A stretch of 32,000 nucleotides of DNA from Candidatus Baldrarchaeota archaeon (GTDB lineage: Archaea > Asgardarchaeota > Baldrarchaeia > Baldrarchaeales > DXJG01). Under the pieces are notes generated by a model. The model was not told where the DNA came from and made no database searches. It worked only from the letters and a program-made list of their open reading frames with translations. How positions within the stretch are numbered: position 1 is the stretch's first letter; every line of letters starts with the position of its first letter. Below are positions 28,624-32,000 of this stretch, one piece after another. The position numbers and the translations under genes are program-made. The stretch lies in the NCBI GenBank assembly GCA_019056805.1, contig DXJG01000004.1, positions 210,001-242,000 of the forward strand, given 5' to 3'.

Positions 28624-29551
28624 GTGTTTCTGGTGATCACTTCATCAAAATCTATATGTATAAGGTTATTGAAGAAGGAAGATGCTAATGACCTAGTTAA
28701 GTTATATGAATTAATTGGCTGGAAACTTACAAAGAAACAAGTAATAAAATGGGTAGAATATTCAAGACGTGGCAAATACACTAGAATTTTTGTAGCAGAA
28801 CTTAAGGGAAAAGTCATAGGCAAAATTACACTTGACACAGCATTTCCACCTTACGCGGAGATAGTAAATGTTATTGTACACCCTGATTACCAGAAACTAG
28901 GCATAGGTTCCAAACTAATTAAAGAATGCATTAAAATTGCAACCAACGATGGATACAACATAATTTATTTGATGTGTGACCCGGTAAATAAGAAAATTCA
29001 TCGTTTTTACGCTAAGCTAGGATTTATACCCGGAATTCTTGGAGATCCTAAAGATGCAAGAAGAGATACGTGGCTATACTATTTCTCCGAAGAATCTTTT
29101 GTCCGAAGATTCTTGGAAGATCATCCTTTCTCAGAGTTTCATGTATCTCGAAGAAAGATGAACTTTCACGGATTAACATTTTAACTCAATGAAATGGATT
29201 GACCCCATTACAGGTGACACTTTAGAGATTCTGATTAAAGGTCGGCCTGGCCAGCCTGAAAGCGGTGGAACTATGCCTAGAATCAGCGGTGTAAGATGCA
29301 AATTAAAAGAAAAGAAATTTAGCTGCTGGATACAGGAAGAAAACAACAAGGTATCTCGCAACATTCTTGGAAAATTTAAATTAAACATTATAAATGAAGG
29401 AAGAAAAGAAATCTCCGTTTACATGAAACCCCTACTTCCAAATGGAGTTGAATTAACCAACGAAGTACCTGTCTATTTCCAAGCATATAATGGTGAACAT
29501 AAAGTATTGACCTTTAAACTAAAATTATTGAAAGTTTTGACATACCATTAG
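28624..29551 (+). pseudogene. GNAT acetyltransferase with a C-terminal extension, probably one gene split by a +1 base (pseudogene or sequence error)
   Basis: GNAT motif VHPDYQKLGIGSKL...FYAKLGF in 28624..29184. Removing one A at 29183-29184 reads ...FHGLTFYSMKWIDP... into 29189..29551. Confidence 0.6.
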
Positions 29552-29719
29552 AATATTTAACATTTCCCACCATAACCGCTTCACTAATGCTGAAAGTCGA
29601 TGATAATATGGAGATAATCGTATCAGCAGGATTCAAATAATATTTCAAATTTCATTTTGATTTCAAAATATAAAATAAATTCTCCTAACACCATTAAGCT
29701 CAAAAAATACATAAACACC

Positions 29720-30016
29720 CTATTAAAATCAATTCGTGAGGGATTCAGCCTAGTTGTATCAGAAGCCTTATGGAAAGGAGTTCCCGTTGTGGGCAGCCCA
29801 GTCGGAGGAATCCCTCTACAAATAATAGATGGCTTCAACGGTTTTCTCGGAAATAACGTCAAGGAAGCAGCCGAAAAAATAATATATCTACTTAAACACC
29901 CAGAGGAAGCAAAACGCATGGGTCTAAATGGGATTAATCACGTTAAAAGGAACTTCTTAATAACTAGACATCTCAAAGATTACCTAAAACTATTCATCGA
30001 ACTCAAAAACACTTAA
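29720..30016 (+). pseudogene. C-terminal remnant of a GT4 glycosyltransferase resembling trehalose synthase TreT
   Basis: KSIREGFSLVVSEALWKGVPVVGSPVGGIPLQI...HVKRNFLITRHLKDY matches the TreT C-terminus; the N-terminal ~300 aa are absent. Confidence 0.78.
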
Positions 30017-30197: not shown

Positions 30198-30482
30198 TTA
30201 AGGAAGAATGTTTTGGCTTCTCTGTATCTGCTTTACTTTCACGATATCAACACTGAAGAGCTTCATAGGTAAACCTTTGATATCAAGTACGTCTTCGAGC
30301 TTAACTTGAGTACTAGCTTCATACTCAACCAGTACGGGGACATTATTAATAATACATGGGAAAGCATACCTTACCTTACCATTATCCTCCTTTATGGAAA
30401 AGACACATTTCTTACCATCCACATAGTTCCTTATAAGCTCCTTAAACTGTTCCAATTTTTCAACAGTCACTCTTAACACCAC
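30198..30482 (-). CDS. Small hypothetical protein (94 aa), third gene of the small operon
   Basis: GTG start after GGGGTGA, 3 bp downstream of the previous stop codon. Confidence 0.7.
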   Translation of the reverse strand: MVLRVTVEKLEQFKELIRNYVDGKKCVFSIKEDNGKVRYAFPCIINNVPVLVEYEASTQVKLEDVLDIKGLPMKLFSVDIVKVKQIQRSQNILP

Positions 30483-30485
30483 ATT

Positions 30486-30680
30486 TCACCCCCGTAAAAC
30501 CTCTACACCAACACCATTCTTCCTCAATACCATTCTTCCATCCCTATCCCTAGCAACAACATAAACGTTATCAACATTCAAAACCACTTTCAACCTCTCC
30601 GTCAAAATCTCTACAAGCGCTGCAATCTCCCTGAGAAGCGGATCATCCGTCTCAGGAGTAATAAAAAATTTAGCAGCCAA
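30486..30680 (-). CDS. 64-aa protein resembling the N-terminal domain of the divergent regulator
   Basis: TTG start after GGGTGATGAGGGGGGAG; shares PETDDP.L with the ORF starting at 31076. Confidence 0.72.
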   Translation of the reverse strand: MAAKFFITPETDDPLLREIAALVEILTERLKVVLNVDNVYVVARDRDGRMVLRKNGVGVEVLRG

Positions 30681-30696
30681 TAGATCTCCCCCCTCA

Positions 30697-30819
30697 TCAC
30701 CCTGTTGGCCACGGATCTTGTGGATCTGCTAAAACAACGGCTGATATAATACTTACTAGTAAGAATATTAACCATAGATTTGCAAGCAACCAAATCTTCA
30801 ACCTACCAAATTTAACCAT
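30697..30819 (-). CDS. 40-aa signal-peptide-type precursor (MVKFGRLKIWLLANLWLIFLLVSIISAVVLA-DPQDPWPTG); absent from the ORF track
   Basis: Translated by hand: ATG at 30819 after GGAGGTG (30835-30829), TGA at 30699-30697 followed by a second TGA. Basic n-region, 23-residue h-region and a V-L-A cleavage motif. Confidence 0.75.
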   Translation of the reverse strand: MVKFGRLKIWLLANLWLIFLLVSIISAVVLADPQDPWPTG

Positions 30820-30870
30820 TACCTAAACACCTCCAACTTTATTTTGCTGAAATAGGTGGTCATGGGAGGG

Positions 30871-31037
30871 TATATAAATCACGGAAAATCCGGAAAAATA
30901 AAGGGACATAAATCCGAATTCGATAAATTTTACTGAAAAGTGTTTGAAAAATAGTAAAACGATGTATAGAGGGTTTATAGATCTTATGGATAAATTTTTA
31001 TAAGTTTTAAATTTTCCGTGATACGGGAAATTTTAAA
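30871..31037. promoter_or_regulatory. Divergent promoter with inverted 12-bp sites
   Basis: TTTATATA on the minus strand at 30878-30871; ATCACGGAAAAT at 30878-30889 and its exact reverse complement at 31011-31022. Confidence 0.55.
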
Positions 31038-31075
31038 AAATATGTGTTATACTTTAAATTTTGAAAGTGATAATA

Positions 31076-32000
31076 ATGGTAACAACAAATAGATACGATG
31101 ACCTCTTCCCCGAAACCGATGACCCGAAATTAAAAACTCTATTTGAAAAAATAAGGATCTATTTAGCACGCTGCGATGGTTTAATTAAAGATTCTAATCC
31201 AGGTATATTGGTTAAAAGAGACGATATGGGAACTTTTGATCCCTATCTTACTCCCAAAAGTAAAAAAGTATATGATACTATTATTTATAGGCTCAAAATG
31301 ATTAAGAAATATAGGATAAGCGATTTTGAACAAATACAGCGTCTACTTTCTCTAGATTTAGTTAGGGAAAAAAAGCTTAAGAGAAACGAGAGAAAGTTTT
31401 TGGAGGCTTTTATTGCATATCCTGATAAAAATTATACAGAAATTGCAAGGTTATTAGGCGTTACCCCGGCGGCAGTGTTATATAACTTAAAAAAATTCAA
31501 GGAAAAGCTTGGTTTGAGATTTGTTTCTCTCTTTGACTATACAAAATTTAAATTAAGAAAGTACGTGATATTTGTAAAATTTAAACATCCCTATGATAAG
31601 CGAACTGTTTTTAAGGTTTTTGAGAATCCTTCCCTTACAAGTTTCAATTTTGATACATTTTCCTCTGAGGGGAAACGATGGGGATGGTTGGGGTTTGTTG
31701 TACCTGATCAAAGAAGGGTACTAAAGGATTTTAGGGATTCCATTGCTGAGCTTGAAGGTGTATTGTTTGATGAAGTTAAGGTTTATGAAGAAAAGGGTAT
31801 AAGTCATGGTTGGAATTTGGATCGTTTTGATAATAGACGTTGGTTTTTTCAAGAGGATATGTGGATATATGGGCTCCTGAATTTCGTCGAAAAATATGAG
31901 GATATATTACCGCAACCTGATATTTTTTGTTTTTCTTATGAAACAATACCTTTTGATAATATAGACTTTCTCATATTTCTTTTTAAAAGAGTAGACTACA
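31076..32000 (+). CDS. Large multi-domain HTH (Lrp/AsnC-like wHTH) transcriptional regulator, truncated by the window edge; absent from the ORF track
   Basis: Hand translation is open from ATG 31076 to the end (308 codons). It contains LKRNERKFLEAFIAYPDKNYTEIARLLGVTPAAVLYNLKKFKEK (HTH), followed by FDYTKFKLRKYVIFVKF as in Lrp-type linkers. Confidence 0.8.
   Translation, partial: MVTTNRYDDLFPETDDPKLKTLFEKIRIYLARCDGLIKDSNPGILVKRDDMGTFDPYLTPKSKKVYDTIIYRLKMIKKYRISDFEQIQRLLSLDLVREKKLKRNERKFLEAFIAYPDKNYTEIARLLGVTPAAVLYNLKKFKEKLGLRFVSLFDYTKFKLRKYVIFVKFKHPYDKRTVFKVFENPSLTSFNFDTFSSEGKRWGWLGFVVPDQRRVLKDFRDSIAELEGVLFDEVKVYEEKGISHGWNLDRFDNRRWFFQEDMWIYGLLNFVEKYEDILPQPDIFCFSYETIPFDNIDFLIFLFKRVDY

Follow-up and report, generated by a model that had tools for sequence, protein, structure and literature searches.

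The p40-p64-p94 operon and its divergent regulator

The window, i.e., the whole 32,000-nucleotide stretch of DNA analysed here (contig DXJG01000004.1 of a Candidatus Baldrarchaeota archaeon), carries towards its end three minus-strand genes that form a single operon divergent from a regulator gene. The first gene, found by ORF calling and conservation, encodes a protein of 40 amino acids (p40; 30697-30819), closes with a double TGA stop and is preceded by a Shine-Dalgarno (SD)-like sequence, GGAGGTG (30828-30834, minus strand), read from the sequence 8 nt before its ATG. There are two further ORF calls, p64 (30486-30680; 64 amino acids), which is the partner gene of the micro-ORF, and p94 (30198-30482; 94 amino acids). 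The gap between the p40 stop and the p64 start is 16 nt, with a G-rich SD-like run (GGGGGGAG) between the double stop and the TTG start codon of p64, and p94 starts 3 nt past the p64 stop. The regulator gene, on the plus strand, starts with an ATG at 31076, runs to the window end at 32000 and finishes outside it at approximately 32476; the complete protein has 467 amino acids. The original prediction, made from the sequence alone, had described three coupled genes of 40, 64, and 94 codons divergent from a regulator of >308 amino acids, and the ORF coordinates agree with this layout.

The 12-bp inverted repeat that had been noticed between the operon and the regulator is exact (30878-30889 and 31011-31022). 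One arm (I3) is part of a palindromic candidate operator, ATTTTCCGT-gat-ACGG(G)AAAT (31011-31033), located between a TATA-like box (30995-31002) and the regulator start. This palindrome is kept in four relatives of the genus, while its flanks are variable. The second arm, ATCACGGAAAAT (30878-30889), abuts the TATA-like box of the p40 operon (30871-30878, minus strand), and this half-site is partly conserved in the genus. The cassette with its palindromic candidate operator at the regulator start is conserved in the genus.

The structural model of the regulator (pLDDT 87) shows the fold of a tandem Lrp/AsnC protein and not that of a TPR receptor. The model contains N-terminal helices followed by two wHTH plus RAM-like units, the first one comprising helices 103-145 and strands 148-246, and the second one helices 295-340 and strands 344-431. 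Its best PDB match is the fused Lrp-like NirDL (4ch7; E 2e-8), followed by many Lrp/AsnC regulators, and the Foldseek probability was 1.00 against many Lrp/AsnC structures. Pfam scores were below the cut-offs (HTH_24, 20.5 bits versus 21.9; HTH_AsnC-type, 15 bits versus 27), and neither a RAM-domain family nor a TPR family was found by Pfam in this protein, in agreement with the earlier remark that no TPR was visible in it. The genome of the window contains a single module and one distant paralog of the regulator on contig 9, which has no p64-like partner. Among five close regulator homologs, variable positions were weakly enriched in RAM-like unit 1 (0.48) relative to unit 2 (0.27). Co-folding of the regulator, p64, and p40 gave a median score of 0.04 versus a mark of 0.32, which we read as neither for nor against an interaction.

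The p40 protein has a basic N-end (K3, R6, and K8) followed by 22 uncharged residues, the triplet V-L-A, and the tail DPQDPWPTG, whose codons occupy positions 30700-30726. It had been interpreted as a signal peptide plus a 9-residue tail; the basic end, the hydrophobic segment and the tail are indeed present, but the 22-residue hydrophobic stretch appears as compatible with a signal anchor as with a cleaved signal peptide. The frame is open in six variants of the genus with a pN/pS of 0.32, and by this comparison of sequences p40 is a real gene under purifying selection. Its hydrophobic N-part (30 residues) is more constrained than its tail among the genus variants (pN/pS 0.27 versus 0.43), and gene callers have annotated a 40- or 42-amino-acid gene at this position in some related contigs. 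The residues at -3/-1 just before the tail are small in all the genus variants, as well as in both TM-like versions of genome G008 (see below), which fits cutting by a signal peptidase. The tail matches the family motif P-[DEN]-P-x-P-[WF], and five different tails exist among relatives of the genus whose regulators are about 80% identical. No Pfam family and no NCBIfam match were found for p40.

The p64 model (pLDDT 93) shows a strand, a helix and three strands, a fold that resembles a minimal Roadblock/LC7-like domain lacking the flanking helices of Roadblock/LC7. Its best structural matches, with two aligners and over all 64 residues, were all Roadblock/LC7/LAMTOR/MglB proteins, e.g., an Odinarchaeota Roadblock (Z 6.9, rmsd 2.7, 64 aligned residues), and the Foldseek matches had probabilities >0.9 with E-values of 0.06-0.2. 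Pfam Robl_LC7 did not match p64 or seven of its homologs, Pfam gave nothing meaningful on these seven proteins, and the DUF7156 score on p64 was 16.8 bits (cut-off 27), restricted to residues 1-23; we found no literature on DUF7156. The p64 gene is nearly invariant in the genus (pN/pS 0.16), and its family has 27 cluster representatives among 1.84 billion proteins. The original prediction had considered p64 a mimic of the N-terminal domain of the regulator. A short motif plus a helix can certainly be aligned (BLASTP E 6e-4, 11/39 identities), but the profile-profile comparison, which aligned the same segments, was not significant (E 0.43). The mimic reading is thus not supported, since it depends on a statistically weak motif; by fold, p64 appears Roadblock/LC7-like.

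The p94 gene, with a pN/pS of 0.15, is conserved only in this genus and in one genome of the same order, and in other lineages its place is empty or taken by another gene. Thus, p94 is outside the conserved core of the module. For p94, we found no Pfam family, a single weak NCBIfam row far below the cut-off, and no usable match in the ESM Atlas.

Distribution of the module and of its micro-ORF in Asgard lineages

Profile searches detected a p64-like gene in 101 of the 400 genomes of the phylum and the regulator family in 167 of them. Of the 74 regulator gene clusters, 52 include a divergent p64-like gene and 57 contain a micro-ORF whose tail is rich in Pro. Judging from these searches, the micro-gene, the double-Lrp regulator and the Roadblock-like protein would be found together in about a hundred Asgard genomes. 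Among the 400 genomes, only a few families of the phylum have the module, and a search with the p64 profile did not detect it in the members of families f9, f21, and f28 that were covered. It is usually a single-copy, core-like module in the two best-sampled families, and genome G008 has three complete modules with a different peptide in each. The genomic context is chromosomal and the flanks are syntenic in relatives; an aminotransferase (by Pfam) and other chromosomal-looking ORFs are encoded downstream, and no integrase or viral genes were found there. These observations make a mobile-element decision switch, which had been offered as one of the options, unlikely, and this reading was rejected.

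A micro-ORF with a Pro-rich tail precedes the p64-like gene in 44 of the 53 non-redundant loci. It is always encoded on the same strand, usually 10-80 nt upstream, overlaps the start of the p64-like gene in one family, and is preceded in the relatives by its own GGAGG site. Two more representatives of the p64 family, located on contigs of about 0.5 kb, also show a Pro-rich micro-ORF just upstream, and one further representative is a near copy of a G008 module. By consensus, the tails end in P-[D/E/N]-P-x-P-[W/F]-stop, and conservation is strongest over the last six residues before the stop. In the 32 unique tails that end in W, F, or Y, Pro is found at -2 in all of them (32/32) and at -4 in 28. 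The enrichment of the PxP[WFY] ending over the background is very large, since it occurs in 26 of the 100 small ORFs just upstream of p64-like genes (53 loci), versus 29 of 6093 elsewhere in these loci and 4 of 24688 in the genome of the window, although the loci are related and the counts are not independent. Therefore, the expectation that a micro-gene with a recognizable tail would be conserved beside the regulator homologs was borne out.

The expectation that this gene generally encodes a signal peptide was not. The whole family spans 9-55 codons, and in most lineages the micro-ORF has only 9-16 codons, with neither a signal peptide nor a hydrophobic segment, suggesting that export is a lineage-specific addition and not the ancestral logic of the system. 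The ancestral peptide would thus be cytoplasmic at synthesis or dependent on an unknown exporter. N-terminal extensions appear in three forms, i.e., TM-like in this genus, TM-like in two of the three paralogous modules of G008, and soluble (33-48 amino acids) in family f7, so that a hydrophobic N-terminus is restricted to this genus and one other lineage. An ESM Atlas search for look-alikes of the 48-amino-acid protein of f7 gave no usable match.

Function of the micro-gene product

The explanation that we tentatively favour, with somewhat less than even confidence, is that the micro-gene encodes a trans-acting effector peptide of the Lrp-Roadblock module, which in this genus is exported. The regulator would probably bind the palindrome over its own start as well as the related half-site beside the TATA-like box of the operon. 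The functional product of the micro-gene would be a short peptidase-resistant peptide, typically ending in P-[D/E/N]-P-x-P-[W/F], that acts as an effector in trans and is made together with the mini-Roadblock p64. Alternating X-Pro is the pattern that a peptide needs to resist peptidases, and the tails, which alternate in this way, are presumably resistant. The peptide might modulate the regulator either by acting on its RAM-like domains or by way of p64 as an adaptor. In this genus, the 40-amino-acid precursor has a putative N-in signal anchor or signal peptide, which would place the tail outside the cell, where it would probably be cut after V-L-A and become a candidate extracellular signal that must be sensed again. 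Several observations argue for the effector. The micro-ORF with its Pro-rich tail is conserved upstream of the p64-like genes and strongly enriched over the background, and it has its own GGAGG sites as well as N-terminal extensions of three forms. G008 encodes a different peptide in each of its three modules, some f7 loci have tandem copies of the tiny gene, and the tails differ among genus relatives with similar regulators. The RAM-type fold of the regulator is of a ligand-sensing type, and peptide-bound structures are known for Roadblock proteins (e.g., 3l7h). In addition, the hydrophobic N-part of p40 is under stronger constraint than the tail, which is more than a purely cis-acting leader would need. 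Against it, in most lineages the peptide has only 9-16 residues and no export signal, no conserved peptide transporter or processing gene is found in the neighbourhood of the module, and the known ligands of Lrp/AsnC proteins are amino acids and not peptides. A single-copy, core-like module is also unlike the polymorphic multi-copy cassettes of Firmicutes, the 22-residue stretch may be a permanent membrane anchor instead of a cleaved signal, and the co-variation of tails with regulators that the original prediction called for was not seen by eye in a small sample, either with the N-terminal motifs of the regulator or with those of p64.

The main rival to this explanation, which we consider rather unlikely, is that the micro-ORF is a cis-acting leader or arrest peptide, whose nascent Pro-rich C-terminus slows elongation or termination and in this way sets the translation of p64 or the fate of the mRNA. 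This control might respond to the status of aIF5A, polyamines or amino acids, and the peptide, once released, would have no function. The size and position of the ORF, mostly 9-16 codons directly upstream of the p64-like gene, agree with such a role, and so does the concentration of conservation in the last six residues with the invariant Pro at -2, as in known termination-arrest peptides. Motifs that depend on eIF5A or EF-P include Asp/Asn-Pro and Pro-x-Pro contexts, and PPW-stop is the ending of the upstream element of eukaryotic AZIN1. Given the gap of 16 nt in the window, the ribosome-binding site of p64 would lie beneath a ribosome that is terminating on p40. Tiny leaders of bacteria can arrest termination, and PepNL, with 14 residues, is comparable in size (PMC11890864). 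Nevertheless, the N-terminal 30 residues of p40 are more constrained than its tail and look like a membrane segment, which a motif acting in the tunnel does not need, and a force-sensing mechanism of the SecM/MifM type should be impossible because the hydrophobic segment, followed by just 9 residues, would still be inside the ribosomal tunnel at the stop, given the length of the tunnel. In addition, the stop codon varies (TAA 27, TAG 10, and TGA 7), the p64-like genes possess their own SD, and the spacers of f7 (30-55 nt) are A-rich and unstructured. Classic bacterial leaders link the stall to the downstream ribosome-binding site by an alternative RNA structure. The transcript of the region 30660-30850 does not fold better than shuffled sequences (z -0.56), and the window transcript has no Rfam match. 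Finally, f7 has a second ORF of 33-48 amino acids with the same tail located 200-400 nt upstream, and some f7 loci have tandem copies of the tiny gene, which also argues against a leader.

Somewhat less likely still, p40 could be a structural micro-protein, i.e., a permanent single-pass (tail-anchored-like) membrane protein displaying a Pro-rich docking motif, whose partner would be the Roadblock- or longin-like protein in lineages with a cytoplasmic peptide, and a surface component in this genus. The product would then neither diffuse as a signal nor act as a ligand of the regulator, which would merely control the operon. The hydrophobic stretches have TM length (22-24 residues) and basic N-ends in all three TM-bearing versions, and the micro-ORF is always accompanied by a Roadblock-like gene or, in the second loci of f12, by a longin-like gene. 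Roadblock dimers have been solved with partner peptides, e.g., the dynein intermediate chain entry 3l7h, and the near invariance of p64 in the genus points in the same direction. However, with an N-in topology the tail of p40 would face outward and p64 has no export signal, so that they could not meet in this genus; moreover, the small residues at -3/-1 fit a cleaved precursor, and the tail differs between close relatives while p64 does not. As for a true member of the RRNPP/arbitrium families, acquired or descended from Firmicutes or phage systems, we regard it as extremely improbable. The only match is in gene logic, in that the product of a small gene beside a regulator combines a hydrophobic N-terminus with a short tail. 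The fold of the regulator contradicts this reading, and the restriction to a few archaeal families among the 400 genomes, the rarity of the p64 family and the chromosomal, syntenic context also speak against it. The analogy with RRNPP systems drawn in the original prediction is only partly supported, by the existence of a conserved peptide-regulator cassette but not by export as an ancestral feature.

The trans-acting effector can be extended to a more specific proposal that we consider unlikely as a whole: an Asgard peptide circuit, shared by Baldr-, Thor-like and other lineages and made of parts unrelated to the bacterial ones, in which a peptide of about 10 residues ending in P-D/E-P-x-P-W/F would be the ligand of the mini-Roadblock and the double-Lrp protein, and in this genus also an exported cell-to-cell signal.

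Novelty and comparison with known systems

The original prediction knew of no description of such a system, and the literature that we searched (Asgard small ORFs, Lrp and Roadblock proteins, archaeal RRNPP, and arrest peptides) likewise contains none of this module. Within that literature, the Asgard proline-peptide regulator cassette is an undescribed circuit: an unannotated micro-gene family with a sharply conserved C-terminal motif that is tied to a Roadblock-like protein and a double-Lrp regulator. Eukaryotes have no closer known relatives than the Asgard archaea, and Roadblock is a eukaryote-signature fold. We know of no peptide-based regulatory or communication system in archaea, and neither such a system nor an archaeal termination-arrest leader peptide was described in the literature searched. 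If the peptide is a trans-acting effector, it would represent an independent invention of the peptide-regulator logic; if it is a nascent-peptide translational switch, it would be, to our knowledge, the first one in archaea; and if it is exported as a cell-to-cell signal, it would be the first archaeal system of the peptide quorum-sensing type. The peptides are short enough to be synthesised and a candidate operator is defined, and thus the hypothesis can be tested in vitro without a cultured host.

The RRNPP systems with Sec-exported pro-peptides (PlcR-PapR, Rap-Phr, and NprR-NprX) and phage arbitrium (AimR-AimP) likewise have a small gene adjoining the regulator, encoding a product with a hydrophobic N-terminus (as in this genus) and a short tail with a conserved core and variable positions. 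The active heptapeptide of PapR, ADLPFEF, also contains Pro and aromatic residues. The mature peptide of those systems is taken back into the cell and, on binding, alters the activity of a cytoplasmic TPR-type receptor. In contrast, the putative receptor described here is a tandem Lrp/AsnC protein and not a TPR protein, the mini-Roadblock has no counterpart in those systems, the host is an archaeon, most lineages lack a signal peptide, and as a rule the module is a single-copy, core-like one. The Rgg-SHP and ComR-ComS (XIP) systems of streptococci are similar in that their cytoplasmic regulators are encoded next to leaderless peptide genes of very small size, and aromatic residues matter in their mature peptides. 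Nevertheless, their peptides, of 17-35 residues, leave the cell through a dedicated ABC transporter and are then processed, whereas the micro-ORFs have 9-16 codons in most lineages and no linked transporter, and the fold of the putative receptor is unrelated.

Termination-arrest leaders such as TnaC, PepNL, and eukaryotic uORF peptides share with the micro-ORFs a tiny ORF directly upstream of the controlled gene and conservation before the stop. They differ in that there is no sequence similarity, the stop is varied and no RNA switch was detected here, and three lineages carry conserved N-terminal extensions. The fused Lrp-like proteins NirDL/AhbAB have two wHTH plus RAM-type units per chain, like the regulator. 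Unlike Lrp/AsnC and NirDL, the regulator has about 100 additional residues at its N-terminal end, and its gene context indicates no enzyme role, in contrast to NirDL. The known ligands of these proteins are amino acids (Lrp) and siroheme (NirDL), not peptides. The core of p64 superposes over 64 residues on Roadblock/LC7/LAMTOR/MglB domains (Z 6.9 to 4.7), which include the solved Asgard Roadblock proteins 7f8f, 7f8m, and 7yh1. It differs from Roadblock/LC7 in the lack of flanking helices and of a Pfam Robl_LC7 match, and in its genetic association: no small GTPase gene is linked to p64, whose partners are instead a micro-ORF and the gene of a DNA-binding regulator.

Organization of the p40 operon and its control region

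The minus strand encodes three genes, p40 (30697-30819), p64 (30486-30680) and p94 (30198-30482), of 40, 64 and 94 aa, while the plus strand encodes a divergent regulator of 467 aa that starts with an ATG at 31076 and is contained in full in the contig. Both the list of ORFs and the sequence itself bear out the tight coupling proposed for the three genes, with gaps of 16 nt (p40-p64) and 3 nt (p64-p94), and also the ribosome-binding sites of two of them, GGAGGTG before p40 and a G-rich SD-like run before the p64 start. A double TGA closes p40. Its product has a basic N-end followed by 22 uncharged residues, V-L-A and the tail DPQDPWPTG; judging by its length, the hydrophobic stretch would fit a signal anchor equally well as a cleaved signal.

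Relatives of the regulator with 79-83% identity were found on metagenome contigs, and all those with upstream DNA carry the three genes in identical order; on some of these contigs, gene callers had annotated, in the place of p40, a gene of 40 or 42 aa. In the six distinct p40 variants the first 30 residues are strongly conserved and the junction retains small residues at -3 and -1, the tails being of five kinds (DPQDPWPTG, TPTQ/EDPWPTKGG, TPTENPWPFG, SPQNPYPWG and TPTEDPSPWG). Pairwise Nei-Gojobori counts yielded pN/pS values of 0.32 for the whole p40 (0.27 for its N-part and 0.43 for its tail), 0.16 for p64 and 0.15 for p94, indicating that all three are real genes on which purifying selection acts. 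The conservation of p94 is restricted to the genus and one genome of the same order; the third gene of other lineages is a different one, or is absent.

The predicted 12-bp intergenic inverted repeat is present and exact (30878-30889 and 31011-31022). The arm at 31011-31022 sits in the palindrome ATTTTCCGT-gat-ACGG(G)AAAT, located after a TATA-like box and before the regulator start, which is kept in four genus relatives while its flanks drift. The other arm, partly conserved, directly adjoins the p40 operon's TATA-like box. From this arrangement we infer that the palindrome and the second arm may mediate autoregulation and control of the operon. No Rfam match was found, and the RNA structure of the p40-p64 transcript was no stronger than that of shuffles.

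Downstream of the regulator there are an aminotransferase gene and other chromosomal-looking ORFs, with no integrase or viral gene, and the flanks of the locus are syntenic in relatives. Thus, the mobile-element decision switch contemplated in the original prediction is unlikely. About 3.9-5.2 kb past the window end (L001:5914-7176) we observed a 420-aa protein composed of many short repeats of the K-V-G-G-S/T-h-E type. Directly 3' of p94, the region 29717-30013 retains no more than the C-terminal 99 residues (336-434) of a TreT-like family-1 glycosyltransferase that is full length in relatives, where its order with respect to a GNAT acetyltransferase gene also differs. This GNAT gene (28624-29640), a single 337-aa ORF in relatives, is broken here into three pieces by frame shifts near 29180 and near 29521-29533, owing either to decay of the gene or to errors of assembly.

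Folds and distribution of the regulator and p64

In the confident model of the regulator (pLDDT 87), helices at the N-terminus and a linker of low confidence precede two winged HTH plus beta-alpha-beta units. Its top Foldseek match is the fused Lrp-like NirDL (4ch7, E 2e-8), and numerous Lrp/AsnC regulators rank next. Pfam gave only sub-threshold HTH matches and no TPR, in agreement with what had been noticed earlier, and the fold excludes membership of the RRNPP family.

The p64 model (pLDDT 93) shows a strand-helix-three strands topology, and two independent aligners gave Roadblock, LC7, LAMTOR and MglB as top structural matches over all 64 residues, with solved Asgard Roadblocks among the matches. 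Because the scores are moderate (best Z 6.9; Foldseek E 0.06-0.2, probability above 0.9), we name p64 Roadblock-like and not a proven member. The resemblance proposed between p64 and the regulator N-terminus consists of a P-x-T-D-D-P motif with an amphipathic helix after it, common to both and appearing in both family consensuses, but the similarity is not significant.

Searching the 400 genomes of the phylum with the regulator profile at E <= 1e-10 gave matches in 167; the strong ones (E below about 1e-100) cluster in six families, where a genome often has several paralogs. With a profile of p64 homologs, the small protein divergent from the regulator was located at 53 non-redundant loci. The p64 family is present in 101 of the 400 genomes, in the same families and mostly as one copy in the two best-sampled ones, and among 1.84 billion proteins its cluster representatives number only 27. 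In family f7 the large regulator always has in front of it a paralog of about 360 aa in the same orientation (e.g., L037:2848-5422), and therefore the peptide operon faces a regulator pair.

A family of micro-ORFs with proline-rich tails

A micro-ORF, i.e., a tiny gene with a Pro-rich C-terminal tail of which p40 is the version of the window, was found upstream and on the same strand in 44 of the 53 non-redundant p64-like loci, counting ORFs with P-x-P within the last few residues that end at most 500 nt upstream of the p64-like gene. The proximal micro-ORF lies within about 170 nt in about 40 of these 44, and several of the loci not among the 44 are explained by variants outside the search pattern, such as MDPGNGGGSPW. 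Most micro-ORFs have 9-16 codons, e.g., MRMYPQDPFPV in a same-order genome, MDPVPGGPDPTPW in f7 and MCPGTNPFPF in family f12; they are accompanied by their own GGAGG sites, and their stop codon is variable (TAA 27, TAG 10, TGA 7). The 32 unique tails with an aromatic last residue (W 18, F 12, Y 2) all have Pro at -2, and Pro also occupies -4 in 28 and -6 in 17, while -5 is D, E or N in 23.

Small ORFs ending PxP[WFY] amount to 26/100 in the zone just upstream of p64-like genes, 29/6093 elsewhere in the same loci (a class that contains further module ORFs) and 4/24688 in the genome of the window, figures that express enrichment and not probability because the loci are related. Of the regulator gene clusters, 74 have upstream DNA that extends to at least 900 nt; in 52 of these a divergent p64-like gene occurs, and in 57 a divergent Pro-tail micro-ORF. 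On this comparative basis the micro-ORF is a conserved element of the cassette; the signal-peptide micro-gene originally predicted beside the regulator is thus retained as an adjacent gene, but most versions have no hydrophobic segment.

An N-terminus that resembles a TM segment is encoded not only in the genus of the window but also by two of the three modules that genome G008 holds as paralogs (tails ADPPNGDIPVPIDG and ADEGCPPNPEPISG), the third one encoding the leaderless MRDDADPIDPTPF. Beside the tiny ORF, f7 has a conserved ORF of 33-48 aa ending QPPCEDPSPF, which occupies the space between the regulator pair and the tiny ORF at a distance of 200-400 nt from the p64-like gene, on its upstream side (L062:5411-5557, with counterparts at the corresponding positions of about 30 f7 loci). 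In its middle it is amphipathic and not TM-like, no look-alike was found in the ESM Atlas, and its invariant Cys suggests a possible modification site. In some f7 loci the tiny ORF and its ribosome-binding site are tandemly duplicated about 181-186 nt apart (L054:5760-6033, L061:5759-5983; also L051 and L053). The second regulator loci of f12 (L082:2198-2317, L083:6356-6418, L084 and L086) carry a micro-ORF with the same tail, in one case ending NPTEDPYPW; what comes after it is not a p64-like gene but an ORF encoding about 190 aa, whose product looks longin-like by eye.

Possible modes of action of the peptide

The component folds, Lrp-like and Roadblock-like, are already known; no description of the module was found in the literature searched, and to our knowledge neither the micro-gene family nor the arrangement in three parts corresponds to a known system. 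The best reading, which we hold tentatively, is that the peptide would act in trans as an effector on the Lrp-Roadblock module and would be exported in the genus of the window. We favor it because the N-terminal extension of p40 is more constrained than the tail, the extensions come in three different forms, paralogous modules with different peptides coexist in one genome, some loci have tandem copies of the tiny gene, tails differ between close relatives, the X-Pro pattern would resist peptidases, and the regulator fold is a ligand-sensing one. However, the export signal is absent in most lineages, there is no linked transporter gene, the module tends to be core-like and present in one copy, and Lrp ligands are normally amino acids.

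The main rival, to which we assign a clearly smaller chance, is a cis-acting leader or arrest peptide, as the small size of the ORF, its constant position and a conservation that falls on the last residues before the stop would suggest; a bacterial arrest peptide of 14 residues provides a precedent (PMC11890864). Conserved N-terminal extensions, varying stop codons, independent SD sites and unstructured spacers argue against a cis action, and a force-sensing mechanism would need more than the 9 residues that follow the hydrophobic segment. Somewhat less probable still, the product could be a structural micro-protein or a docking peptide for the Roadblock-like partner.

Finally, paralogous regulators of other genomes have a 45-53 aa ORF convergent with their 3' end (L026:3863-4000, L027:3768-3929 and L039:3746-3901), which encodes a hydrophobic segment with a tail rich in Pro, Gly and Ala, e.g., ending APFGGSDPNPSPA. 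This ORF, conserved in two genomes from the same family, may be either a peptide gene of another type or a chance occurrence.
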